A stretch of 64,000 bases of DNA from an uncultured virus (IMG/VR IMGVR_UViG_3300017780_003486) (Duplodnaviria > Heunggongvirae > Uroviricota > Caudoviricetes). The notes beneath the pieces are model-generated. The model saw nothing but the letters and a program-made list of their open reading frames with translations. It searched no databases and was not told the origin of the DNA. A program made the position numbers and the translations under genes. Shown piece after piece: positions 2,369-64,000 of this stretch (position 1 is the stretch's first letter; each line of letters begins with the position of its first letter). The stretch lies in the IMG/VR virus record IMGVR_UViG_3300017780_003486. One strand, 5' to 3'.

Positions 2369-2614
2369 TTAGCCGGGACCGCGCGGGTTCCGCTCTTCTT
2401 CGAGCTTGTCGATGAGGACCTGGACCGCGCGGGCTTCGCCGCTCGCGTCGATGAGCTTGCTCCTGAGGTCGCTTTCATATTCCTTCAGCCCCTTCAATTC
2501 TCTCGTAAGGCAGTTCATACAGGAGACCTCCGTCAGTTCGGAAGTCGTCTGTCCGCTTCTAGCCCCGGCTTTACAGAGCGAGTCGCCTCGATAGTGGATC
2601 GCTCTCCTACCCAT
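2369..2614 (-). CDS. hypothetical protein (small, Cys/His-containing)
   Basis: 81 aa ORF tiling the operon. Confidence 0.55.
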   Translation of the reverse strand: MGRRAIHYRGDSLCKAGARSGQTTSELTEVSCMNCLTRELKGLKEYESDLRSKLIDASGEARAVQVLIDKLEEERNPRGPG

Positions 2615-3131
2615 TCGGGTTCTCCTTCGGTATCGAATGGACCTGAAGGCAGAGGATACCGATGCCGCGATACGCTTCGCATACGTCGGCGCGATCTTCG
2701 AGCGCGAGTGCGATATAGTCGCTCGCCTTCGTATAGGAAGCGCCGTAACGCTTCCGAAGCTCCTTGATCACGAGTGCCGGCTTAAGGATCGGGGACGGAA
2801 CCGTGACCTCGTCGTTGGGGCGCATGAGAAGGAGGTCGAAAGAAATCGACCCCATCCGCGCGAGGGTAGCTTCGGTCAGGTCGCGCCATTTCTCCGGCCG
2901 GGAGGTCACGCCCCAGATTTCGAACGCGACGAGTTCAAGGGCGGCGATAAGATCGAGCATCGCGCCGAGCGGCCGGTCATCGACCGACTTCGCGTTGTAG
3001 AGGTCCCACTCCTCCGGCTTGGCGGCCCCGCCGTCTATGCGCGTTGGCATAAACTGCTCGCGCCACTTCGCGTCGACCAACGTATCGTCGATATCGACGA
3101 GAACGATCTTCGGTCCGTTATGCTTATTCAT
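2607..3131 (-). CDS. HAD-superfamily phosphatase (PNKP phosphatase-like)
   Basis: VLVDIDDTL motif I, VTSRP motif II, LLMRP, LEDR motif IV. Confidence 0.85.
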   Translation of the reverse strand: MNKHNGPKIVLVDIDDTLVDAKWREQFMPTRIDGGAAKPEEWDLYNAKSVDDRPLGAMLDLIAALELVAFEIWGVTSRPEKWRDLTEATLARMGSISFDLLLMRPNDEVTVPSPILKPALVIKELRKRYGASYTKASDYIALALEDRADVCEAYRGIGILCLQVHSIPKENPNG

Positions 3132-4431: not shown

Positions 4432-5119
4432 GATGGTCGCCTTCTCCGAGCCTCGCCTTCGCATCTTCGTAGTTCGCAAACCCGGCCGCAGCAGCGGCCT
4501 GATCGAAGGCGACCGTTCGGTCGAGACCGGTCTTCTTGATCTTCGCCTTCGCGACCGACTCGATGCTCGAAAGCGTCGGAGCCGTCTTCGCCGTCGTCGA
4601 CGTGTCGACCGGAACACCGGCATAGATGTATTCGTAGCGCTGTCTTCCGCTATCGAGTGTCGACTCCCAGCGACGCTTCGAGATGACGAAGCGCGTTCCA
4701 TCGGCGTCGTCATACTCGATCATCTCGGCAAGCTCTTCGTGGTCGGCGTCCCAGCGAACGCCGGTGACGCGATAGAGCGTCCCTTTATAGTGACGATGGG
4801 TCGGAGCCCATACGGGCTCCTTCGCCTCGTCGAGCGCGACGATGACCCGGTTCTTGAGCGTCTCGGTCAGCTTCGCGTTCTGATCGATGAGCTTCTCCAG
4901 CGTCGTGATCGCGTCGTGATAGAGCGTCGCGAGCGCTTGGTTCGGATTGACGATACCGTAGTCGGGCGGGTCCTTCCGGAGTTCGGCCGTAGCGATATCG
5001 CCGTGATACTTCCGCTTCTCCTTCAGCTCGTCGAGAAGCCTCGGGTTCCCGATGATGCTCGTCTGGCCGGGGACTACAGCCCGGCTATGACGCTGCGCGA
5101 GTTCGGCTTCGGTTCTCAT
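4424..5119 (-). CDS. DUF1653-like domain protein
   Basis: THRHYKGTLYRV...EMIEY pattern. Confidence 0.6.
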   Translation of the reverse strand: MRTEAELAQRHSRAVVPGQTSIIGNPRLLDELKEKRKYHGDIATAELRKDPPDYGIVNPNQALATLYHDAITTLEKLIDQNAKLTETLKNRVIVALDEAKEPVWAPTHRHYKGTLYRVTGVRWDADHEELAEMIEYDDADGTRFVISKRRWESTLDSGRQRYEYIYAGVPVDTSTTAKTAPTLSSIESVAKAKIKKTGLDRTVAFDQAAAAAGFANYEDAKARLGEGDHRA

Positions 5120-5709
5120 TTCTCGGTCTCCTTTTCGTTCTTCGTTTTCGAGTGCGCGATGAGCATCAGATACGGGCCGACCGGGCTTTCGAAGATACGG
5201 CCGCGAAGGATCGCCTGAACGTCGTCCTTCGAGAGCATAGCGCTCCCTTCTTTCGCGCGTTCTACGTTCACGTTCGAAAGGTCTTCTTCGCCGAAGATGC
5301 TCGACATACCGTCGCCGAATTCAACGTAAACTCCCCACTCACCCTTGGTCTTTTCGGCGACCGGTCCGACGCCGTCAAGGTTGGCATCGATCAAGTCCCG
5401 CGAGGCCGCCCAATCGGCGTCGCATTCGCGCGAGAGCATCGCGTAGACGGCGAGGTCATCGAGCGAGTCCTGATGACCGCCGCGTTTGATGTTCTGCGAG
5501 TAGCGCGTCAGCTTCGATACGAGGTGGAAGACGAGATGAAGACGGTTCCAGTCCTCCTCCGTTTCGAGCGAGAGCCCGGCCGGGAAGAGACCTTGCATGA
5601 TCTTCCCGACGTGCTTGTAATTATCGCCATAGAGCGGCTTACGTTCGCGATAGATGTCGGCGATCTCGACGAGGAAATCGGCCGCGTTCTTCTTCGGTGC
5701 ATCGGACAT
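5116..5709 (-). CDS. DUF6378/Nmad-like nucleotide-modification-associated helical protein
   Basis: IYRERKPLYGD...KLTRY...HQDSLDDLAVYA pattern. Confidence 0.65.
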   Translation of the reverse strand: MSDAPKKNAADFLVEIADIYRERKPLYGDNYKHVGKIMQGLFPAGLSLETEEDWNRLHLVFHLVSKLTRYSQNIKRGGHQDSLDDLAVYAMLSRECDADWAASRDLIDANLDGVGPVAEKTKGEWGVYVEFGDGMSSIFGEEDLSNVNVERAKEGSAMLSKDDVQAILRGRIFESPVGPYLMLIAHSKTKNEKETEK

Positions 5710-16483: not shown

Positions 16484-16734
16484 ATAGGAACACCGAGAAA
16501 GTTCGGCTCGCATCGGTATCGAAGAGAGCGCGGAAGCTCTTCGAACGGATCGAGAGCGGTCGCTTCTATCGCGCGTATGGCGAAGGAAACCCGAAGGCGA
16601 TGACGGAACTACTCGATGCCGGGCTAATCAAGCGTTACCCGAAGGTCGTCGTGATCGCCTCCGCGATGGTCCCTCACAACTATGAGGCGAGCTACGTCGA
16701 GTCCTACGGGAAGAAGAAGCGGAGGGTCATATGA
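16480..16734 (+). CDS. hypothetical protein
   Basis: ATGA-coupled. Confidence 0.55.
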   Translation: MNRNTEKVRLASVSKRARKLFERIESGRFYRAYGEGNPKAMTELLDAGLIKRYPKVVVIASAMVPHNYEASYVESYGKKKRRVI

Positions 16735-53976: not shown

Positions 53977-55110
53977 TCAGGCGGCCTTCTTAACGTCGAG
54001 CGCGGTCGCTTCGAGGACCTGCTTCCAGTCGGCCTTGCCCCAGTTCATCATCTGACCACCGGCTTCCTCGAACTCGACCGCGCGGTCGTAGTTCTTCGCC
54101 GTATGAGCCTGATGCGTAACGGCGTTCAGGAGACCCCAAGCGGAGAGGTCACCGCCTTCGATCAGCGACTTGAGGATGCCGGACGACTCTTCGTCCGACA
54201 CGCCGACCTTCTGCGAGAGAACGACGACGGCGGCCTGCGGGTCCTTCTCGACCTTGATGCCGGTCAGCGTCTGAGCGTGTTCGATCTGCTTCCGGAAGCG
54301 GTTCTCGTCGACCGCCGACTTGACCATGTCGCGGACCTTCGAGAGAACGAGCTTGTCGTCGAGCTTCCGGGTCGAGTCCGACCAGAGGTCTTCGTTGTCG
54401 TCGATCTTCCGGCCGACGTGGTTCGCGCGGAAGCGATCCATACCCTTCATCCCGTTGAGGCAGATCAGGCGCCAGATCACCGACGAGACCGAGACCGAGC
54501 CGCAGCCGACTTCGGAGTTCGTGATCAGGACACCGGCCTGAACCACGTCGCCCTTCTTGATCTCGCCCTCGATAGCGGGCGTGACGGCTTGGATGTACAT
54601 CCGCTTGTCCGTGACCTCGCACGAAACGATCTTGACGTTCGGAAGCTCCGCGAGGATCGGAAGCGCAACGTCGGCGATCTCGTGGTTATCGATCCGGCTA
54701 TAGCGGTTCGAGAGGAAGCCGCGAGCGTTCCCGTGGAGAGTGCGGAGCATCCGCTTGTCGGCCTCGCGTTCGAGGTCGTGCTTGAGCCACGAGTTGACGT
54801 TCATCGCCAACAGGTCGGGTTGCTTCTCCAACATCCGGTCGTAATACTTCGCCGGGATGCCGACGTAGGTTCCGAGCTGATTGTGGACGAGATCGAGCAT
54901 CGGGAAGCGCTCGGCCTCCCGCGTTCCGTAGAGTTCGAGAACCGGCCGACGCTTCTTGATCGGCGTCTTCGCGTTACCGATGGGCGGCTCTTCATAGTCG
55001 TCGATCTGCATAGCGAGGCCCTTGCGGGTCTCGACGATGAAATCCTTCCGGGCATCGCGGTTGAACTCGATCTTGCGCGCGAAGTCGGCGAGGCTAATTC
55101 CCTTTTGCAT
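53977..55110 (-). CDS. DUF932-like phage/plasmid protein
   Basis: RGFLSNRY..IDN, ITNSEVGCGS, RLICLNG, WGLLNAVT. Confidence 0.8.
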   Translation of the reverse strand: MQKGISLADFARKIEFNRDARKDFIVETRKGLAMQIDDYEEPPIGNAKTPIKKRRPVLELYGTREAERFPMLDLVHNQLGTYVGIPAKYYDRMLEKQPDLLAMNVNSWLKHDLEREADKRMLRTLHGNARGFLSNRYSRIDNHEIADVALPILAELPNVKIVSCEVTDKRMYIQAVTPAIEGEIKKGDVVQAGVLITNSEVGCGSVSVSSVIWRLICLNGMKGMDRFRANHVGRKIDDNEDLWSDSTRKLDDKLVLSKVRDMVKSAVDENRFRKQIEHAQTLTGIKVEKDPQAAVVVLSQKVGVSDEESSGILKSLIEGGDLSAWGLLNAVTHQAHTAKNYDRAVEFEEAGGQMMNWGKADWKQVLEATALDVKKAA

Positions 55111-55129: not shown

Positions 55130-55195
55130 TATGGCCTATCTCGTCAGCGCCGGGTGGCCGTATCCGGCGGACGCTCCCGGAGGAGCGTTTCGATT
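55130..55195 (-). ncRNA. type II hammerhead ribozyme with loop I/3'-tail pseudoknot
   Basis: Sense RNA AUC GAAA CGCUCC-UCCG-GGAGCG UC^ CGCCGG-AUACGGCCAC-CCGGCG CUGACGA GAU AGGCCAUA; complete core; predicted GUC cleavage between 55170 and 55169. Confidence 0.92.
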
Positions 55196-55556
55196 ATCCT
55201 TCTTCGTCGCTCGGGAGCGGTTCGATCCGCTTCCAAGCCTGATCGGGACCGCGCGGCGATCCGATATCGGCGATGCGCTTCTCCGATAGAAGCTCGCGAA
55301 TGAGGTCCCACTGGTCTCGATGGACCTCCATACCGTCACAAGCCGAAGCGACTTGGACGATGATCCGTTTCTCGACTTCCTTCTTCGCCATATCGATATC
55401 GTTGAAGAAAGCCGGTTCCTTCTTCGAAGACCAAACGCGGTCTTCGTTCTCTTCGAGAGTGAACCGATACGGACCGACCGGAGTTCGAATGATCCTCCAG
55501 TATATCCGGCCGAAGATTTCGGATCGGTACGCCTTGACGACGCCAGCGTCGTTCAT
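55194..55556 (-). CDS. hypothetical protein
   Basis: GGAGG RBS; stop codon overlaps hammerhead stem II. Confidence 0.55.
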   Translation of the reverse strand: MNDAGVVKAYRSEIFGRIYWRIIRTPVGPYRFTLEENEDRVWSSKKEPAFFNDIDMAKKEVEKRIIVQVASACDGMEVHRDQWDLIRELLSEKRIADIGSPRGPDQAWKRIEPLPSDEEG

Positions 55557-55804: not shown

Positions 55805-56064
55805 TGGTGCTGATACCTCTTCCGTTCGATGGACGGCCAATGCCGCTGGGCTTCTTCGTACTTCAGTTTCGAGCCCCGGAGCGATACGGCTACAGCAGCG
55901 CTGCCAACCTCCTCTCCATCTTCGTGGTCGACTATCCCTTGATAGGCAACCTGAGTATTCGTCCCATCGTCTTCGACGAGAACGGCTAGGAGTATCCGCC
56001 GCTTCGATCCCCTACCGAGATAGGGGACCGTGGGGCTATGGATACCGATGATCTTGCGGCTCAC
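55801..56064 (-). CDS. hypothetical protein
   Basis: GTGA-coupled. Confidence 0.5.
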   Translation of the reverse strand: MSRKIIGIHSPTVPYLGRGSKRRILLAVLVEDDGTNTQVAYQGIVDHEDGEEVGSAAVAVSLRGSKLKYEEAQRHWPSIERKRYQHQ

Positions 56065-57149
56065 TTCTTGGCCGCCTTCTTCTTCGCCGCTACCTTCTTC
56101 GGAGCGGCCTTCGGAGCGGCCTTCGGAGCGGCCTTCTTTGGGGCCGCCTTCGGGCTCGCCTTCGGACTCGCCTTCTTCGCCGCTACCTTCTTCGGTGTCG
56201 CCTTCGGACTCGCCTTCTTCGGTTCGGCCTTCTTGATGCCGACGTTCGTCACGATCTGCGGTCGCGGCGTCTTCTTCTCCGGCTCCGTCTTCGTCGCGGC
56301 CGGAGGAGTAGCAGCCGGGGCGGCCTTCTCCGGGAGACCGTCGCGGAGCGTAAAGGCGTGTCCCTTCAGGGTCGCCTTCCCATCCTTGATGAGAAGAGCG
56401 CGAAGCGCCTTACGTTCGGAGTCCGCGATGCCGAGAGCCTTCAGCGCGGTCTTGATCGTCCCGTAAGACTTCCCGCCGACCGTCACGGCGATGCTCCCGG
56501 AAATCCCACCGCCTTCCTTCTTCGCTCGCGGCGTCGTCTCGCCGTTCGCTCGCGCGGTCTTATTCGCCTCGCGCTCGGCTTTCCTCTTCGCCTTCGCGTC
56601 TCGTTTCGCTTGTCTCTCGCGCTCGCGAACAACCTGCGCCGCCTTCTTCCGGACCTCGGCCGACTCGGGAGCCGCCTTCTTCCTGACCTCGATGGTCTCG
56701 GCGGTCACGATCGTGATGCTCGCGTCGGCGATCTGCCCGCTAAGGACGTAGAGTTCGGGCGTGTACCAGTCGTTGAACGCTTCGAGGTTATCGAATAACT
56801 GCGACCTCGTACCGGCTTCGGTAACGAGATTGACTTGGACTGGCTTCATCGGGTCCTGCGGCGTGATCTTATCGATAGGCATTTGAAACTCCTTCGCTTT
56901 CGGCATAATCCATTCGCGCTCGGTATTGAGCAGACGCTTCAGTTCTTCGGGGCTCTTCTTCGGTCTGTTCGACCGGAGGAACTTCGGTATGACCCAGACG
57001 CAATCCGGGTGATGGTAGGAACCGGCCGGGGCTCCGCACTCTTCGCAAGCCCTGAGGCCAACGGGAGTATCGGACAAAGTCGGTTCGGAAGCGACGACCG
57101 GAGCCGCCGTCTTCTTAGGTGTCGATGACGATTTCTTCTTGGCGACCAT
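56061..57149 (-). CDS. basic DNA-binding protein with histone H1-like Lys/Ala/Pro tail
   Basis: KAAPK/KASPK repeats; shared GKSYGTIKTALKALG domain; N-terminal CEEC..HHPDC. Confidence 0.75.
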   Translation of the reverse strand: MVAKKKSSSTPKKTAAPVVASEPTLSDTPVGLRACEECGAPAGSYHHPDCVWVIPKFLRSNRPKKSPEELKRLLNTEREWIMPKAKEFQMPIDKITPQDPMKPVQVNLVTEAGTRSQLFDNLEAFNDWYTPELYVLSGQIADASITIVTAETIEVRKKAAPESAEVRKKAAQVVRERERQAKRDAKAKRKAEREANKTARANGETTPRAKKEGGGISGSIAVTVGGKSYGTIKTALKALGIADSERKALRALLIKDGKATLKGHAFTLRDGLPEKAAPAATPPAATKTEPEKKTPRPQIVTNVGIKKAEPKKASPKATPKKVAAKKASPKASPKAAPKKAAPKAAPKAAPKKVAAKKKAAKK

Positions 57150-57219
57150 CGGAGGACTCTCCATCGGTGAAGGAAGACGAGACGAGAAGGACGATGAGGA
57201 CGGCGACGATCCACCGCAT

Positions 57220-57495
57220 CTATGCGATCCTTTCCGGGTACGCCTCGGGGAACGAGGTCATCAGTTGGATGGCCGCCTCGTCGGCGATCTGGATGGCCAT
57301 ATTCCTCCGAAGACGAAGACGAATGTAGTCGTCGTCCGTCAGGAGGTTCTCAAGAGCCCGAGCCTCTTCCTCGCGCTTTTCTTCGCGAAGCTGGATCGCC
57401 TTCCGTCCGATCTCGAAGCGAACGCCGTGACTCGTGAGAGGACGGAGCCGCATCTGCTTGCGGAGTTTTTCGACTTTCTTCTGTAGGGTATTCAT
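57220..57495 (-). CDS. early hypothetical protein (after element copy 1)
   Basis: AGGAG RBS directly after repeat. Confidence 0.65.
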   Translation of the reverse strand: MNTLQKKVEKLRKQMRLRPLTSHGVRFEIGRKAIQLREEKREEEARALENLLTDDDYIRLRLRRNMAIQIADEAAIQLMTSFPEAYPERIA

Positions 57496-57508
57496 CTCTT
57501 CTCCTGCT

Positions 57509-57569
57509 CCAGCGAAAGCGCTGGCGGATCGAGCGGAGCCGAAGCGCCGCTCTCACCGTTAGGGCTTTC
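57509..57569 (-). ncRNA. repeated structured intergenic element, copy 1 (compensatory GAAAGC/GCUUUC variant)
   Basis: 61 nt; cUUCGg loop. Confidence 0.85.
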
Positions 57570-57979
57570 TAGTTCTTCGTATAGACCGCGAGGCGATAAT
57601 AGATCGGGCTGATGCCTTCTACCTCTTCGGTGGTTCGGAAATGGCGCCTGACCTGCGCCTTCGCGAGTTCTTCGGGAGTGAGGTCTTTGACCGCTTCCTC
57701 GGCTTCACGAATGAATGCCGGCGGCGGATGTCCATCGCCCTCTTCCCAGTACGTCGCCAAGAACTTCGCGACGAGCAACCGAAGATCGCTCGGCGGTTCG
57801 ATAACGAGTAGCGACGTGTCGAACCGTTGCGATGCGTGATTGGTCCCGGCCTCTCGTATATAACACGCCGTCTGGTTCCGTCCGGGAACGATGCGAACGA
57901 TTTCCCAGAGCGTTTCTCCGACGCCTTTCCCGCCAGCGAGCTTGACGCGGACCTTATCGCCTATCTTGAATTTCGTCAT
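57569..57979 (-). CDS. early hypothetical protein (SH3/KOW-like N-terminus)
   Basis: FKIGDKVRV; flanked by element copies. Confidence 0.65.
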   Translation of the reverse strand: MTKFKIGDKVRVKLAGGKGVGETLWEIVRIVPGRNQTACYIREAGTNHASQRFDTSLLVIEPPSDLRLLVAKFLATYWEEGDGHPPPAFIREAEEAVKDLTPEELAKAQVRRHFRTTEEVEGISPIYYRLAVYTKN

Positions 57980-57995
57980 CGAGTTCTCTCCTATA

Positions 57996-58056
57996 CCAGC
58001 GGAAGCGCTGGCGGATCAAGCCCCGGATCATCGAGGCTCTCACCGTTAGAGCTTCC
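57996..58056 (-). ncRNA. repeated structured element, copy 2
   Basis: 61 nt; variable stem GAGCCUCG/CGGGGCUU with G-U wobbles. Confidence 0.85.
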
Positions 58057-58682
58057 TAGAGAGCTTCTTCGTTAGCGCGAGGCCGAGCAAGCTCGTGAGC
58101 CTTGAGCCCGATACACCGCTTGCAGTTGACCTCCTCCCACTTAGACCGGACGCGCGCCTTCGACTGCCGGAACGAAAACCGGTTCCCGCTCGATACTGCC
58201 GTGCAGAGCGGACGACCGAAACCGCTACGGCTGAAGTGGATCGGCGCTGGCCGCTTCGGCTTCGTCTTCTTCTCTATCGTATCCTCCTCCGAAGGCCCGA
58301 GCGGCGCTCCCTTCGGTCGGAAGCGCATACCGGAGATATGGCCGCGACTGAAGTTATGACCGTCCTTCGTCCGAAGGAGCCAATCTCTGACGGCACTTTC
58401 GAGGTCGCCGGAAATCCGGATGCCGTAGTCGGGGCCGCGCACGCCGTTGGTCCCCCACTCAAGGCCGTGCGAGGTCTCGTAAGCGAAGGAGCGAACCTGC
58501 CGAACGATGTCGGCGGCGCAGAGATAGAACGTCCGCGTGTACCAGCGGCGACCGTACTTTCCGAAGTCGCCATCCGGGTGGTCCTTCTCCTGCTTCGCGC
58601 GATCCTTAAGGTTGTCGGCCCAGAGGAAGTCCCACGCGGCGGGGATCGCCTTGGCGATGTCGAACGAAAAACGCTTTCCCAT
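58056..58682 (-). CDS. early hypothetical protein
   Basis: 208 aa, AGGAGG RBS; TAG overlaps element. Confidence 0.65.
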   Translation of the reverse strand: MGKRFSFDIAKAIPAAWDFLWADNLKDRAKQEKDHPDGDFGKYGRRWYTRTFYLCAADIVRQVRSFAYETSHGLEWGTNGVRGPDYGIRISGDLESAVRDWLLRTKDGHNFSRGHISGMRFRPKGAPLGPSEEDTIEKKTKPKRPAPIHFSRSGFGRPLCTAVSSGNRFSFRQSKARVRSKWEEVNCKRCIGLKAHELARPRANEEAL

Positions 58683-58694
58683 AATCGTGTCCTC

Positions 58695-58943
58695 CTATCG
58701 AACGGCGGTGGTCGAAAGCGAATAGATCGGCCGCCAGACGACGTGTACTTCGTCCGTCCCGCTCGGGCCGTAGAGGAAGCAAGGGAGTGACGTGTTCTCC
58801 GTCTCCCGTTCGATACGACGAACCGCGTCGATGTGTAAGCGAAGGTAGCGCGCGATCACCGGCAGCGGAGCGCGCATCACAAACGAGAGGTCGTTCTTAT
58901 CGCTCTTCGGGGCGACCGACAGATCGTACAACTGAATGGCCAT
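58695..58943 (-). CDS. early hypothetical protein
   Basis: RBS after element copy 3. Confidence 0.6.
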   Translation of the reverse strand: MAIQLYDLSVAPKSDKNDLSFVMRAPLPVIARYLRLHIDAVRRIERETENTSLPCFLYGPSGTDEVHVVWRPIYSLSTTAVR

Positions 58944-58962
58944 AGGTTACGTCCTTTCTATT

Positions 58963-59023
58963 CCAGCGGAAGCGCTGGCGGATCGAGCCCCGGATCGTCG
59001 GGGCTCTCACCGTTAGAGTTTCC
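58963..59023 (-). ncRNA. repeated structured element, copy 3
   Basis: 61 nt; stem GAGCCCCG/CGGGGCUC. Confidence 0.85.
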
Positions 59024-59995
59024 TCACTTCTTCTCGACTTGGAGGTCGAGGCCGATCTTGTCGCCGGCAACCCGTCCGACGCTGAACGCTTCTCCCTTCT
59101 TCGCGTTCTTCGCGTTCTCGCGAGCGTTCTTCTTGTAGTATTCGCGAGCGGCCTTCTTCGCGTCCTCTTCGCTATAGCCGTGGCTCCGATAGAACGCTTC
59201 GACCCAATCGACGCCTTCGCTTTCGAGGCGTTCGGCGACGAGGCGACGCTCGCGCTCAGACGCCTCGCGGCCTTTCCTCCGGGCCGCCGTCGTTCCGGCC
59301 GGGAGGCCATAGCGAAGATCGGCGTTGAGGTCTTCTTCCGAGCCGTAGACATCCGAGAGGAGGACAAGGCCCGTGCCGGGAGTAGCGCTACCCGTCGCGG
59401 CGGTCGCCTTCCGACGAGCGGCCTCCGCTTCGGCTTCTTCGCGCTCCCGCTTCGCGCGCTGGGCGAAAAGACGTTCAGAGAGACGCGAGACCGCGCCGTC
59501 AAAGAAGAGCGCGTTGTCGGAGGTCCCGTGGTCGTATCCGTGACGCGCGGCCTCGCGCCCAATCGACTTGACGAGATAGTCGTAAAGGGCAATCGTTCCT
59601 TGGATGTTGATCGTCCGCCCGATCAGAACGTGGAAGGTCGACTTCTTGAGCCCGAGATGTCGGCGGCTCTTGAGCGTCCGCTCGACGAGCTTCTCCTGCA
59701 CGAAGTGGATGCAGAAGTTCCCCTTCGCGAGAGCGGCCATAAGCTCGCGCTGCCACTTGTACATCGCGCGCCGATCCGTCTCGGCCTTCTCGCGATCCGT
59801 CATCGCGTCGGCGTTACGCTCCGAAGCCGTGACCTGCGCGAGCGACAAGCCGTAGTCCTGAAGGAGTTCCTGTACCTTCGCCGCAGCGCTCTCGGCTTCG
59901 GCGGCCGACGAGTTCTTATTCTTATCGGCGAGGGCGAGGAGCTTCTTGATACGCTCGATCACTTTCTCGGTCGGCATCTGCTGTTGGTTCGTCAT
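59024..59995 (-). CDS. DUF2786-domain protein
   Basis: IERIKKLLALAD...AEAESAAAKVQELLQDYGL. Confidence 0.8.
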   Translation of the reverse strand: MTNQQQMPTEKVIERIKKLLALADKNKNSSAAEAESAAAKVQELLQDYGLSLAQVTASERNADAMTDREKAETDRRAMYKWQRELMAALAKGNFCIHFVQEKLVERTLKSRRHLGLKKSTFHVLIGRTINIQGTIALYDYLVKSIGREAARHGYDHGTSDNALFFDGAVSRLSERLFAQRAKREREEAEAEAARRKATAATGSATPGTGLVLLSDVYGSEEDLNADLRYGLPAGTTAARRKGREASERERRLVAERLESEGVDWVEAFYRSHGYSEEDAKKAAREYYKKNARENAKNAKKGEAFSVGRVAGDKIGLDLQVEKK

Positions 59996-60010
59996 CTATC
60001 TCTCCTTATC

Positions 60011-60071
60011 CCAGCGGAAGCGCTGGCGGATCAAGCCTCGTACTATCGAGGCTCTCACCGTTAGAGCTTCC
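60011..60071 (-). ncRNA. repeated structured element, copy 4
   Basis: 61 nt; stem GAGCCUCG/CGAGGCUU. Confidence 0.85.
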
Positions 60072-60418
60072 TACGGCGAAGCGTCCCATCCGGCAGCGCG
60101 TTCGGCCGCGCGGATACCGGAAAGGTCGTATGACCGCTCGCGCCTCCGGTCGGCAAGGCCGACGGCACGCTCGACTTCTTCGAGAGGCCATCCGACGTAT
60201 CGAGCGAACCGCTCGCGCGCCTTCGCCTCGTTCATCGTCTTCTTGACCGGCCGTCCTTCGACCTTGCACCAGACGACGAGGCCGAGATGGATCGTCGTCT
60301 TCCTCTTTCCTTTCCTCTCTACCGTGTACTCGACGAAGGAGTACGGGTCGTGGCGCGGTCCCTCGTCGCCGTTCTTGACCGTGATCGAACCGCTCGTCGT
60401 CTTATAGCGTTCATACAT
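60071..60418 (-). CDS. early hypothetical protein
   Basis: Flanked by element copies. Confidence 0.65.
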   Translation of the reverse strand: MYERYKTTSGSITVKNGDEGPRHDPYSFVEYTVERKGKRKTTIHLGLVVWCKVEGRPVKKTMNEAKARERFARYVGWPLEEVERAVGLADRRRERSYDLSGIRAAERAAGWDASP

Positions 60419-60432
60419 TCGTCTCTCCTATC

Positions 60433-60495
60433 CCAGCGGAAGCGCTGGCGGATCGAGCCCCGGATCGCGTCGGGGCTCTCACCGTTAGAGCTTCA
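60433..60495 (-). ncRNA. repeated structured element, copy 5
   Basis: 63 nt; upstream gene stops at the TAA inside CUCUAAC. Confidence 0.85.
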
Positions 60496-60997
60496 CGAGT
60501 TGCGTAGCGAGACAGATGTTTCTCTCGACGATCCCGCAGATCAATTGGAAACCGATCTTAAGGCGCCAGTCGATGCGTCCGCCTTCCCGATCATATGTAG
60601 TGTCGGTGAAGAGGTTCTTGAACGTCTCTTCCGTCCACGACGATTTGTGATCGAGGTTCTGATGCTGTAGTTGCGAATTATAGTACGGCACCACGATAAG
60701 CGCGGAACCGCCCGGCTTCAGAACTCGATTTATTTCCTCGACGACTTTCGTAGCGGTCGAGCCGTCGAGATGTTCGAAGAAGTGATAAGCGACCACTCCC
60801 GCCACTTCTTCGTCTCCGAACGGGATCGTATCTCGTCGAGCATCCCAATCGGGAAGATCGAGGTTGGTCGTTTCGTAGGGAAGGGCCTTTCGACCGGAGC
60901 CGAGGTTGATTATCGGCCCGGATGGAAAAGAAAGGATGGCCGGAACGTCCCGGCTCATCCCCCAGCGAAACAGGTCTTGAAAGCGAACTTCCTTCAT
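60485..60997 (-). CDS. class I SAM-dependent methyltransferase-like protein
   Basis: INLGSG, IPFGDEEV, HFFEHL, EINRVLKPGG. Confidence 0.85.
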   Translation of the reverse strand: MKEVRFQDLFRWGMSRDVPAILSFPSGPIINLGSGRKALPYETTNLDLPDWDARRDTIPFGDEEVAGVVAYHFFEHLDGSTATKVVEEINRVLKPGGSALIVVPYYNSQLQHQNLDHKSSWTEETFKNLFTDTTYDREGGRIDWRLKIGFQLICGIVERNICLATQLVKL

Positions 60998-61000
60998 TGA

Positions 61001-61342
61001 CTAAGCCTCCTTAACGATCTGAAAGGTAACGGAACGCTTGCCGTTCTCGAACACGGCCCGACCGCTCGCCTTCAACGACTTGCGAAACCGGGCACACTGG
61101 GCGGCGGTCCCGAGCTTCAGCGACTTGAAGGCGCTCCAGGCGCTATCGTACTTCTTGCCGCCGACCTTAACGGCGTGGCGGGTGGCCCGCGCCTTCATAA
61201 CCTTGTCCGACGCGGCCTTCTTCGCCGTCTTCTTCGCGACCTTCTTGACCGCGACCTTCTTGACCGCGACCTTCTTCGTGTTCTCGGCCGAAGCCTTGAC
61301 GACGTTGGCGACGACGGCGACGTTGTTCTTCTTGGCGTTCAT
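61001..61342 (-). CDS. small basic histone-like DNA-binding protein
   Basis: KKVAV repeats; GGKKYDSAWSAFKSLKL domain. Confidence 0.7.
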   Translation of the reverse strand: MNAKKNNVAVVANVVKASAENTKKVAVKKVAVKKVAKKTAKKAASDKVMKARATRHAVKVGGKKYDSAWSAFKSLKLGTAAQCARFRKSLKASGRAVFENGKRSVTFQIVKEA

Positions 61343-61392
61343 AGTAGTCTCCTATTTCGAAGTACCCGCTCGTCCTCTCGGGATCGGAGCGT

Positions 61393-61449
61393 CCAGCGGA
61401 AGCGCTGGCGGATCGAGCGGCCGTAGCCGCTCTCACCGTTAGAGCTTCC
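61393..61449 (-). ncRNA. repeated structured element, copy 6
   Basis: 57 nt; stem GAGCGGC/GCCGCUC; followed by an extra CGCUC/GAGCG hairpin. Confidence 0.85.
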
Positions 61450-61544
61450 TAGTAGTTCCGCTCGTCGTTCTCCGGGTCTCCGATAAGCCAGAGGACGAGA
61501 GCTGCCGCGATCCACGGCGAGAGTAGTTGAACAGCGAGCCACAT
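61449..61544 (-). CDS. 31-aa single-TM peptide
   Basis: Below track cutoff; GGAGG RBS; MWLAVQLLSPWIAAALVLWLIGDPENDERNY; TAG overlaps element. Confidence 0.55.
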   Translation of the reverse strand: MWLAVQLLSPWIAAALVLWLIGDPENDERNY

Positions 61545-61556
61545 CAGACGGTCCTC

Positions 61557-61757
61557 CTAGTACCGGGTGCCGTAGTAGAGCCACGGATTGTTGGGGTGGC
61601 GCTTGTTCATCACGCGATGAAACTCACGTACGATGCCGTCACTGACATTCAACTCTCTGACGATCTCGCTCTTGCTGAAGCGAGCCAGAAAGACGTTGGT
61701 GAAGACGTAGATGACCTGAAGGTAGATGGCCTGAGACAGTTCGTTCATAATGTTCAT
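61557..61757 (-). CDS. early hypothetical protein
   Basis: AGGAGG RBS. Confidence 0.55.
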   Translation of the reverse strand: MNIMNELSQAIYLQVIYVFTNVFLARFSKSEIVRELNVSDGIVREFHRVMNKRHPNNPWLYYGTRY

Positions 61758-61761
61758 CCTC

Positions 61762-61899
61762 CTAAGCGATCAGATATCCGTACCGATTGTACCAGCCTCG
61801 TCTCGTCTTGATCGGTCGGCTCCGGGTTCCTTTTCGAGACGCGGCGAATTCACATTCGAGCCGTATCGCGTCACATAGCGCTTTCAGATCGAACGTCAT
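61762..61899 (-). CDS. 45-aa hypothetical peptide
   Basis: ATGA overlap with upstream stop; MTFDLKALC... Confidence 0.45.
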   Translation of the reverse strand: MTFDLKALCDAIRLECEFAASRKGTRSRPIKTRRGWYNRYGYLIA

Positions 61900-62123
61900 C
61901 GCGCGCTCTCCTCTTCGTTAAGGCGACGAACCACCGCGTCGATATCGGCCTGTCGGTCGCCGCTCTTAACGATCTTGAGGTTCTTCCGGCGAACGCCGAG
62001 CCCTTCGTCGTAGAGGTCGTCTGCTTCGTCCGCGACGGTCGCGCGGTCGTAGTCGCCGAAGTGGATCGCCCACGGGCTCTTATCGTCGTCTCGCGTCACG
62101 AGCGTGTAATACGTCTTCGCCAT
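61896..62123 (-). CDS. early hypothetical protein
   Basis: Start MAKTYY after AAGGAG; WAIHFGDYDR. Confidence 0.7.
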   Translation of the reverse strand: MAKTYYTLVTRDDDKSPWAIHFGDYDRATVADEADDLYDEGLGVRRKNLKIVKSGDRQADIDAVVRRLNEEESAR

Positions 62124-62141
62124 CGTCGTCTCCTTCGTTAC

Positions 62142-62202
62142 CCAGCGGAAGCGCTGGCGGATCGAGCGGCACCGAAGCGCCGCTCTCACCGTTAGAGCTT
62201 CC
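62142..62202 (-). ncRNA. repeated structured element, copy 7
   Basis: 61 nt; GAGCGGCGC-UUCG-GUGCCGCUC. Confidence 0.85.
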
Positions 62203-62492
62203 TAGTAGTTGACTTCGTAGTAGCGACGACCATCGCGACCGAGAGAACGAAGGACCTTCGCTTGGTGGAGTGCTTTGACCGCTTCGGTGAGGTCGACCGT
62301 CTCGACGTTGTTAAGTGCCGCTCCGATCCGGTTGATCTGATCGATGTCGATCATCGCGTAATACATAACCCGGAAGACCCGAGCCGCGAGTGCGGTCGAC
62401 GGCGACCAGTTCGCCTTTACCTCTAAGAAGCCGTCGAGCAGTTCGAACGTCTTCGCTTCTTCTTCGGACCGCTTCGAATAATCCTTAGCCAT
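62202..62492 (-). CDS. early hypothetical protein
   Basis: Flanked by element copies. Confidence 0.7.
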   Translation of the reverse strand: MAKDYSKRSEEEAKTFELLDGFLEVKANWSPSTALAARVFRVMYYAMIDIDQINRIGAALNNVETVDLTEAVKALHQAKVLRSLGRDGRRYYEVNY

Positions 62493-62512
62493 CGTCGTCT
62501 CTCCTTCGTTAT

Positions 62513-62569
62513 CCAGCGGAAGCGCTGGCGGATCGAGCGGCCGCAGCCGCTCTCACCGTTAGAGCTTCC
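62513..62569 (-). ncRNA. repeated structured element, copy 8
   Basis: 57 nt. Confidence 0.85.
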
Positions 62570-62823
62570 TAGTTCTCGTCGTTAAGCTCGCTATCGGCGA
62601 ACTCTTCCCAGAGGAAGCGCTCGGCTTCCTCGATGGTCCCGAATGTCCGGTCGTCTCCGGCGAGGCTCACTTCGTAATGAGCGCTGGTCGACCCTTCGTT
62701 CGGCACGCCGATATAGAAGGCGTCGAGGTAGAGGTATCCGGCGAACTCCGCGAAGCCGCTCGTGTACGGCGCGAGGTTCGAGACGTACTTACGCGATGCC
62801 TTGAACTCTTCGAACGTCGTCAT
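62569..62823 (-). CDS. early acidic hypothetical protein
   Basis: Flanked by element copies. Confidence 0.7.
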   Translation of the reverse strand: MTTFEEFKASRKYVSNLAPYTSGFAEFAGYLYLDAFYIGVPNEGSTSAHYEVSLAGDDRTFGTIEEAERFLWEEFADSELNDEN

Positions 62824-62842
62824 GGTCTTTCTCCTTCGTTAC

Positions 62843-62903
62843 CCAGCGGAAGCGCTGGCGGAGACCGACACGACGGATCGTGTCGGCTACCGTTAGAGCT
62901 TCC
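62843..62903 (-). ncRNA. repeated structured element, copy 9 (entirely different central stem)
   Basis: 61 nt; GCCGACACGA-UCCG-UCGUGUCGGU. Confidence 0.85.
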
Positions 62904-62909
62904 TGATCG

Positions 62910-63104
62910 TTAGCGCTTCTTGCCGCCGATGTTCGGCTGCGGGTTGAACTCCTTCGGCTTACGTTCGAACGTCGCGCCCTGATCGTAGTTCTCGACGAGC
63001 TGTTCGGCTTCCTTATGAGCCTTCGCCGAGTAGAGCGACCACATCGGCGTGTGCAGAACCTTCTGAGCATTACGATACGACTTGGATGAAATCCGATAAG
63101 CCAT
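62910..63104 (-). CDS. first gene of the early array, hypothetical
   Basis: AAGGAG RBS after element copy 10. Confidence 0.65.
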   Translation of the reverse strand: MAYRISSKSYRNAQKVLHTPMWSLYSAKAHKEAEQLVENYDQGATFERKPKEFNPQPNIGGKKR

Positions 63105-63125
63105 GTTCTTCTCCTTCTTCGTTAC

Positions 63126-63187
63126 CCAGCGGAAGCGCTGGCGGATCGAGCGTCGTTAGTATCGACGCTCTCACCGTTAGAGCTTCC
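63126..63187 (-). ncRNA. repeated structured element, copy 10 (no upstream ORF seen)
   Basis: 62 nt; stem GAGCGUCG/CGACGCUC. Confidence 0.85.
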
Positions 63188-63194
63188 TCTTTTA

Positions 63195-63232
63195 AGTTAG
63201 TAGCATAACCTCAGTCGCGACGGCTTCATAGA
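63195..63232 (-). promoter_or_regulatory. possible early promoter
   Basis: TATGCT -10-like hexamer at 63202-63207 in an AT-rich patch; weak -35. Confidence 0.3.
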
Positions 63233-64000
63233 GCGCATCGGTTCGTTATGCATCGATCTCTCTTCGCTAAACTCCGCGTCTCGCACTCGGACGGGGAACG
63301 GCCTCCGCGCTTAAGAGCCTCTATCGTTCCGGCGACTAGAGCGACGGGGGAACGATTTCAGGACTTATCTATTCAGCGACTTGGGGCGGGATAGGAAGAG
63401 GCTAGACCCGTCCCGATCCGAACGCCGAGGCCGCTTCTCCTTTCGGCCTACAGAGGAGGACGAGGAAAGGAGAGCAGAGCCATCGGCCCAGAAGGGGCGA
63501 TAGGGTCTAGGGTTCTTTAGCCGGGGCCGCCTAGAGTGCTAATCGAACCTCGCCGTTTTGGCTGCAAGCGGTTCGAAGAGCCTAGCAGGGCGCTTCTAAT
63601 TTTTCCCCGGTTCCCTCCAGCGGCCTCCACGCGACCCTAAGTTACGGAGGGGAACCAGCGAGGCCCGGAGGCCCCGCCCCTCCGACGTTCCCGCCGGAGG
63701 TAGGCTCATTATAGAAAGAAAGAGGAAGGAAGGAAGGCCCGAAAACCGATTTTTTAGGCCCCATATATAGTAGGGGTCCGGGCCGCCCCGGTCCGGGAGC
63801 CCTCCCGGAGCTCAGGAAAGGCCCAAAATCGACAAGGCTAAAAGCCTTACGCCATCGGCATTAAAACGAAACCACGACCAAAACAGGCGTTCTATCGACT
63901 CCCGGCCGGGGATCGGGGCCTAGTAGGGGCCGGGCCGGGGCTCCCGGCCGGGGCTCCCGGAAGGCGTCTAATCGATCCTCCGGCGACCGGGGCGATAACC

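Follow-up and report, generated by a model that had tools for sequence, protein, structure and literature searches.

A recurrent two-state RNA element at gene boundaries of a phage early operon, a candidate processing signal

Ten copies of a short structured RNA element punctuate the early operon of an uncultured phage (IMG/VR record IMGVR_UViG_3300017780_003486, Caudoviricetes), of which we analyzed 64 kb of DNA, referred to below as the window. The element region spans positions 57509-63187 and belongs to an operon of small genes on the minus strand, so that the sense RNA is the reverse complement of the strand as numbered. Covariation of its helices in 23 copies from 10 phages shows that the element functions as a cis-acting RNA, as had been suggested in an initial annotation made from the sequence alone. 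We further consider it fairly probable that it is a gene-boundary processing module, at which the message would be cleaved by one means or another.

The ten copies listed in the initial annotation were all recovered (Table 1). A conserved 20-mer from the 3' part, allowing up to three mismatches, matched the window exactly ten times (0.01 matches expected), and a 15-mer from the 5' part matched the identical ten sites; neither the 20-mer nor two covariance models (R1 and R2) detected an eleventh copy in the 64 kb. Each copy measures 57-63 nucleotides (nt), and all have a single orientation, the same as that of transcription. From the 5' end, the sense consensus consists of GGAAGC (5' strand of helix P1), UCUAA (a joiner), CGG (P2), UGA, a variable stem-loop (P3), GAU, CCG, CCAGC, GCUUCC, and GCUGG. 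In nine of the ten copies the order of features was stop codon, element, ribosome-binding site (RBS), and start codon, and in nine of ten the RBS lay 3-8 nt 3' of the element. When the relatives described below were included, this distance was 0-20 nt in most copies; the start codon followed 1-50 nt past the element, mostly at 9-24 nt.

The upstream stop codon began at position -2 or -3 relative to the first base of the element in seven window copies, at +8 in one, and at -9 in copy 9, while copy 10 has no gene upstream and sits in the 5' leader of the operon. The earlier statement that the stop overlaps or abuts the 5' end in eight of the ten copies agrees with these positions, the eight stops lying at -3 to +8. 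In copy 5, the methyltransferase open reading frame (ORF) crosses the 5' strand of the element and ends at the UAA of the joiner. Between copy 6 and its start codon lie 50 nt, versus the usual 13-21 nt; this spacer (61343-61392) contains an additional small hairpin. Together, the copies partition the initial 5.7 kb of the operon, and the resulting blocks hold 1, 1, 1, 4, 2, 1, 1, 2, 1, and 5 genes. Since the genes 3' of the copies are mutually unrelated, the element serves gene boundaries and not one particular gene.

The exact element sequence was found in IMG/VR only in a near-identical phage, G001, which carries ten copies spaced as in the window, with some stems swapped between copies. Unaligned ends of contigs matching the region revealed the existence of divergent relatives. 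A redesigned sequence pattern, followed by R1 and R2, applied to IMG/VR contigs yielded 13 further sense copies in nine contigs (G002-G008, G010, and G011), with one or two confident copies in each. G009, which carries a near-duplicate of the G008 copy, was excluded, and three weaker matches that R2 did not recover (G006 54046, G004 22227, and G005 15772) were dropped as doubtful. The element-bearing phages share almost no proteins with the window phage; only G005 is moderately related, and the gene order around the elements differs between the two. The largest protein cluster covered 5 of the 10 element-bearing genomes and no family was common to all, a comparison limited by fragmentary contigs and by the sensitivity of BLAST. 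In the relatives, the upstream ORF stopped at -8 to +8 of the first base and the start codon lay 4-48 nt past the element; the proteins encoded downstream were unrelated, except for two shared genes.

Other searches added no copies. In metagenomes the element pattern gave 13 loci, all of them chance matches, the pattern being too strict at the joiner. A pattern for the 3' half gave 77 stretches in viral contigs, and the real ones were only in contigs already known, including G001. At least 120 pattern matches were found in genome contigs, none of those examined having a stem of five or more pairs, and blastn of the region against 50,697 phage records gave zero matches.

The covariation was evaluated in an alignment (A7) of the 23 copies, comprising the ten window copies and the 13 relatives, that had been fitted to a model of P1, P2, and P3 without P4, the 3'-terminal hairpin introduced below. 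For P1-P4 together, 95.9% of the pairing cells were complementary versus 78.0 ± 1.1% in shuffled alignments, and none of 500 shuffles reached the observed value; overall, the figures were 92.7-95.9% versus 73-78%. Sliding the partner strands by 1-3 columns left only 32-52% of the cells paired. Both sides had changed in 15 of the 23 pairs: five of six in P1, one of three in P2, nine of nine in P3, and none of five in P4, which is invariant in sequence and 99% paired. Among the pair sets of P1 were GGAAGC/GCUUCC, GGGAGC/GCUCCC, GUGAGU/ACUUGC, GAGGUU/AACCUC, and GGUUGC/GCAACC, together with a compensatory GAAAGC/GCUUUC in copy 1; an A-C mismatch in P1 of copy 3 is a G-C pair in the sister strain G001. 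Two pairs made by the joiner (Y8-G and U9-A) were always formed and never covaried, and a third formed in 9 of 23 copies.

In a comparison that did not depend on the alignment, 11 of 17 distinct copies had a helix of at least five pairs between their first nine bases and the nine that follow CCAG, versus 51 of 270 mismatched combinations. P3 contained six G-U cells versus no A-C cells, A-C elsewhere being restricted to a loop-closing column or to P1 mismatches. This asymmetry fits folding of the sense strand and bears out the G-U wobbles reported earlier for the mRNA-sense strand, just as the central stem, described as variable in sequence yet always pairing, did so across the window copies. 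The bases conserved between phages were U9, the A before P2, CGGUGAG, CGAUCCG, and CCAG, with GCUGG present in 20 of 23 copies.

These compensatory changes, which keep the RNA paired, and the P3 bias (G-U but never A-C) make it highly improbable that the element is a DNA-level recombination or mobility sequence that shuffles gene cassettes and lacks an RNA function. Such a sequence would account for the stems exchanged between copies of the sister strain, as in gene conversion, for the occurrence of the element in unrelated phages, and for the different gene orders of the window and G005. However, the orientation is strictly that of transcription, no integrase or recombinase was seen among the 70 ORFs scanned, and recombination at the repeats may be a by-product. 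A resemblance to integron attC sites was rejected separately: judged by the familiar features of attC sites, the element has no paired inverse-core and core sites, and the ORFs scanned included no integrase.

In minimum-free-energy predictions, nine of the ten window copies, and most relatives as well, folded into a single long hairpin, and RNAalifold independently obtained the same hairpin as the consensus of the alignment. From its base, this hairpin comprises P1 (GGAAGC/GCUUCC), a one-base mismatch, a CU paired with the AG of CCAGC, a 2x2 loop, CGG/CCG, a 3x3 UGA/GAU loop, and P3. By its sequence, the UGA/GAU loop could form tandem G-A pairs. The two arms were equal in 20 of 23 copies and 24-27 nt long in 17 of 23, and the internal loops were symmetric; cUUCGg loops, already reported in the initial annotation, were seen in two copies. 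The UGA/GAU loop of the earlier description is lacking in copy 9, which has UA/CU at this position and a longer stem. Copy 9 and copy b of G005 lack the P2 and GA-loop core while keeping P1, the joiner, CCAGC, and GCUGG, and in both variants longer stems hold the arms at 26 nt. Two other exceptions were found among the relatives: GCUGG is missing from G008 and G009, and P1 is missing from copy a of G003 (16756).

The 3' strand of P1, GCUUCC, doubles as the loop of a second possible hairpin, P4, with the stem CCAGC(G)/(C)GCUGG. Because GCUUCC takes part in both, and because the P1 and P4 strands abut with zero linker bases, P1 and P4 can either form a pseudoknot without linker or be mutually exclusive. 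When the first ten bases were barred from pairing, every window copy folded as P2-P3 plus P4, a state that was 2-6 kcal/mol less stable than the long hairpin in most copies. The RNA accordingly has two predicted states: a single extended, symmetric hairpin, and a pair of short hairpins that may be closed into a pseudoknot.

Scanning positions 57000-64000 on both strands against Rfam 15 with E-values up to 10 gave four weak matches, none of which overlapped a copy; that the element matches no known ribozyme or riboswitch consensus, as first noted, stands for all Rfam 15 families. ARAGORN detected no likeness to tRNA or tmRNA, and the hammerhead catalytic core was absent from the copies. Mappings onto HDV-like and variant hammerhead ribozymes, made by hand from consensus sequences, lacked the defining strands. 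Stop-codon read-through or bypassing was rejected, the lengths of 57-63 nt not being multiples of three and the reading frames differing. A CRISPR-repeat mimic was likewise dismissed, since no CRISPR-DR model matched the copies, and so was an anti-Shine-Dalgarno decoy, since complementarity between the loop and the actual binding site is limited to some copies. The element is undescribed in Rfam 15 and in the literature as searched by words and not by sequence; the supplements of ribozyme-discovery studies, which were not examined, could hold a similar motif. RNA modules that punctuate polycistronic phage messages are already known, namely hammerhead arrays and the RNase III sites of phage T7; new here are the RNA family and its two-state design.

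The initial annotation had argued that phage ribozymes occur in slots between a stop codon and the next RBS, and this argument proved apt for the operon itself. A scan of the whole window with Rfam at the gathering score returned a single match, a hammerhead ribozyme with an intact core (Table 1). It occupies the next structured slot of the element's own operon, 2.3 kb further downstream than the last copy, where ORF 55194-55556 ends and a DUF932 gene (53977-55110) follows. There, a UAA (55196-55194) overlapping its first base is followed by the ribozyme, an RBS, and the ATG at 55110. The stem I loop of this hammerhead can pair with its 3' tail (GGCC with GGCC). Type II hammerheads were also present in two of the relatives. 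The one in G011 shares the strand of the element and follows it at a distance of approximately 700 nt, and the spacer to its RBS is identical to that of the element there; the one in G005 lies approximately 430 nt downstream of an element copy, directly before a homologue of window gene 58056-58682.

A more distant phage, represented by contig L056 and reached through its DUF2786 gene, contains five intercistronic copies of another repeat. It begins with a purine 5' strand and a variable hairpin; AGAACGCGC then serves as a conserved linker to another hairpin, whose loop reads AAAC-YYY-AAGC. Its 5' strand and loop covary (GGAG/CUCC, AGGG/CCCU, and GAAG/CUUC), and a further phage, L420, has GCGG/CCGC. 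One copy scored 26.4 bits with the Twister-P5 model (cut-off 37.6) and the other four were unmatched; judging from its sequence, the repeat is probably a divergent twister family. Contigs L057, L059, and L060, which carry DUF2786 or DUF932 homologues, contained no such repeats.

Because hammerheads occupy the same kind of gap, the most likely role of the element is to mark sites at which the early message is cut and its new ends are protected. After cleavage of a type II hammerhead, the upstream RNA ends in stem III and the downstream RNA starts with stem I, and P3 and P4 would give the same result, a hairpin on each new end. In the pathway that we propose, the long early mRNA carries the element as an intercistronic cut-and-cap signal. 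Once transcribed, the element would fold into a near-symmetric hairpin of about two helical turns, beginning at the upstream stop codon. A host endonuclease specific for double strands, most likely RNase III, would then cut the long hairpin, as happens at the five signals of the T7 early transcript. The upstream message would retain the GC-rich upper hairpin on its 3' end, whereas the released CCAGC would refold with the conserved GCUGG into P4, which would lie at the new 5' end, or no more than a few bases from it, and just before the next RBS. If the hairpin is cut in this way, the conservation of GCUGG is explained by the pairing through which it would cap that end.

Cleavage of the long hairpin by host RNase III is a tentative suggestion, drawn from the predicted fold and held with less than even confidence. 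RNase III is favored as the agent because the nested fold is the more stable one, its loops are symmetric, and the length of its arms is maintained; since the contigs with the element have no protein family in common, a host factor or the RNA on its own is suggested as the agent. PMC3867540 describes a preference of RNase III for about 22 base pairs and single-strand cuts at internal loops that leave stabilizing 3' hairpins, and counts five RNase III signals in the T7 early transcript.

Several observations weigh against this scheme. About 20 bases (A-CGGUGAG, CGAUCCG, CCAG, and U9) are conserved in phages of 52-66% GC content whose helices have otherwise turned over, a degree of conservation that exceeds the sequence constraint known for RNase III sites. 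The 5' strand pairs with the whole P4 loop, which could represent a pseudoknotted, active fold rather than a precursor, and the twister-like repeat of L056 has the same pairing between 5' strand and loop without any long hairpin. The G003 copy without P1 and the G008/G009 lineage without GCUGG each lack a part that the scheme uses. The neighboring hammerheads, moreover, would be just as compatible with self-cleavage being usual in such slots.

The last point leads to the principal rival, a new class of self-cleaving ribozyme, which we regard as possible but doubtful. It would measure about 60 nt and have four helices and a pseudoknot between 5' strand and 3' loop, as in twister; the joiner Y-U-N-A, CCAG, and the GA loop would form the active site. 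Replacing hammerhead or twister at phage gene boundaries, it would cut itself there, and its 3' product would refold as a protective 5' hairpin. Twister-sister, pistol, and hatchet ribozymes were discovered through this type of association. The equivalent slots hold a hammerhead in three phages and twister-like repeats in L056, about 20 bases are conserved around freely covarying helices in unrelated phages with no protein common to all, and the topology, in which the 5' strand and a variable hairpin precede a 3' hairpin with a loop paired to that strand, parallels that of Twister-P5. However, no known ribozyme model matched with E-values up to 10, and two copies that are otherwise intact have other sequences in place of the UGA/GAU loop and P2, which counts against a catalytic role of this loop. 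The abutting of P1 and P4 would also leave a full pseudoknot sterically strained, the nested long hairpin has the greater predicted stability, and the arm length appears to be conserved, which a peripheral ribozyme stem would not need.

The position of the element next to the RBS raises the question of a role in translation. The RBS was predicted to be mostly open, with a mean unpaired probability of approximately 0.4-0.9. A switch that unmasks the RBS (translational coupling) was examined by blocking the 5' strand in 22 copies, and since accessibility did not change consistently, a classical unmasking switch is unsupported. The same result counts against an uncut compact fold that insulates translation units, either by giving each RBS a uniform context or by holding the stop codon near the next start. 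This alternative, which we consider unlikely, would agree with the RBS lying directly 3' of the element (within 20 nt in most copies), with the first copy being in the 5' leader, and with the open RBS; the ribozymes filling the same slots and the sequence-level conservation would be left unexplained. We regard it as quite unlikely that the element is bound by some trans-acting factor besides RNase III, such as a translational repressor shutting off the early genes or another host nuclease (RNase E or RNase P) acting on the conserved core. The strongly conserved core and CCAGC/GCUGG, with P4 paired in 99% of cells and never covarying, and the immediate vicinity of the RBS would suit a bound factor, but the ribozyme neighbors favor cleavage and no phage protein is common to the element contigs, within the limits of fragmentary contigs and BLAST sensitivity.

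We also compared the element with the put antiterminator RNAs of HK022, described as being about 70 nt long with two stem-loops (PMC9378689). Like them, the element is a cis RNA of two stem-loops, about 60 nt long, in an early operon, and its nascent transcript might modify RNA polymerase so as to cause antitermination. Such a role is nonetheless very improbable here, since put is described as occurring once per operon, with one copy downstream of each early promoter (PMC9378689), versus ten copies of the element in 5.7 kb, no terminators were predicted behind the copies, and the ribozyme neighbors would remain unexplained.

Four known systems come closest to the candidate cut-and-cap signal. 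Clustered hammerheads flank single genes or short blocks in prophages, from which processing of long phage transcripts was inferred (Perreault et al., 2011; PMC3088659). Like those arrays, the element is present in several copies along one phage transcript, where it bounds individual genes or short runs of unrelated ones, in the slot order stop codon, RNA, RBS, and with a true hammerhead in the same operon; its two adjacent hairpins would cap both new ends. Unlike them, it has neither the CUGANGA, GAAA, and GUC core nor an Rfam match, and self-cleavage is only a candidate property. With the T7 RNase III signals it shares repeated intercistronic hairpins (predicted here) of about two helical turns with an internal loop, and a predicted 3' hairpin on the upstream message. 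One T7 signal precedes the first gene, as does one copy of the element. Unlike the T7 signals, the element carries in GCUGG a second pairing partner of its own, for a 5' hairpin, and has a core conserved in unrelated phages, and its cleavage by RNase III is putative.

Twister-P5 (RF02684) also has a purine-rich 5' strand, a variable hairpin, and a 3' hairpin with a loop that pairs back to this strand; UAA, P2, T1, and the CCCAAGC loop, which make up the twister core, are in contrast missing from the element, and the covariance model gave no match at E-values up to 10. The SAS and ESAS repeats of Cluster K mycobacteriophages, described in PMC3203893 as 11-19 repeats located just upstream of the starts of non-structural genes, resemble the element in their single orientation and their position upstream of genes of different families, and the account given there treats the function of SAS as unknown. 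According to the same account, however, the SAS 13-mer contains the AGGAG of the RBS, 3-7 bp from the start codon, whereas the RBS lies outside the element and varies. The authors of PMC3203893 state that the ESAS inverted repeats do not support RNA pairing, while the element covaries strongly.

The division of long early messages into stable, separately translated units is known for few model phages, among them T7. The alternation of the element with hammerheads in the same operons, and the twister-like repeats in such slots of a more distant phage, suggest that cutting at gene boundaries is a general need that various RNA modules can fill. Should the element cut itself, it would constitute a new ribozyme class; should host RNase III be the agent, the element would be a compact natural cut-and-cap insulator with a built-in refolding step, possibly useful for synthetic operons.

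Table 1. Element copies in order of transcription, and RNA features occupying comparable slots.
Feature	Source	Position	Strand	Remarks
Copy 10 (first transcribed)	window	63126..63187	-	5' leader of 64-aa gene 62910-63104
Copy 9, variant	window	62843..62903	-	without UGA/GAU loop, 10-bp stem; before gene 62569-62823
Copy 8	window	62513..62569	-	before gene 62202-62492; upstream UAG stop overlaps its first G
Copy 7	window	62142..62202	-	cUUCGg loop; before four small genes (61449-62123)
Copy 6	window	61393..61449	-	before gene 61001-61342 and methyltransferase 60485-60997
Copy 5	window	60433..60495	-	before gene 60071-60418
Copy 4	window	60011..60071	-	before DUF2786 gene 59024-59995
Copy 3	window	58963..59023	-	before genes 58695-58943 and 58056-58682
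Copy 2	window	57996..58056	-	two G-U pairs in stem; before gene 57569-57979
Copy 1 (last transcribed)	window	57509..57569	-	before gene 57220-57495 and four more genes
Type II hammerhead ribozyme	window	55130..55195	-	Rfam 46.7 bits (gathering score 37)
Type II hammerhead	phage G011, L362	5646-5709	-	38.5 bits; anchored by UAG stop
Type II hammerhead	phage G005, L127	1007-1070	-	30.1 bits, sub-threshold, complete core; anchored by UAG
Repeat, probably twister-like	L056	4532-4579, 5910-5957, 7021-7068, 8611-8658, 10585-10606

Further features of the operon were recorded. Directly upstream of copy 9, positions 62906-62920 hold a partial second copy of the 5' half of the element, which overlaps the stop codon of gene 62910-63104 and may be a scar of recombination between copies. 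ORFs 56061-57164 and 61001-61342, both on the minus strand, contain tandem 12-15-nt repeats, of the GCCTTCTTC type on the plus strand, and encode lysine/alanine-rich repetitive proteins of the early operon. Upstream of the operon, positions 63188-64000 form an 800-nt, non-coding, GC-rich stretch with repeated CCGGGGCTCCCGG-type motifs and hairpins. A simple scan of 57000-64000 found no sigma-70-like promoters, and terminator-like matches in the same interval were not meaningfully above those in shuffled sequences.

The window phage is of the siphovirus type, with genes for DNA polymerase, primase, SNF2 helicase, polynucleotide kinase, terminase, portal, capsid, and tail proteins. Two minus-strand genes, 2607-3131 and 5116-5709, resemble polynucleotide kinase/phosphatase genes by their PHROG matches. 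Enzymes of this type act on RNA ends with 5'-OH and cyclic phosphate, as left by ribozyme cuts. As to the host, R2 did not find the element in 151 genomes of one order around a Shinella genome, the sole match being a false positive inside a membrane-protein gene. The window portal protein is at most 44.6% identical to portals of Rhizobium and Synechococcus phages, and the window DNA occurs in freshwater metagenome runs, one of which may be its source. In phage G011, positions 16561-16672 (minus strand) of contig L364 match the Rhizobiales small RNA family Atu_At1 with 72.5 bits (gathering score 60), a possible clue to its host.

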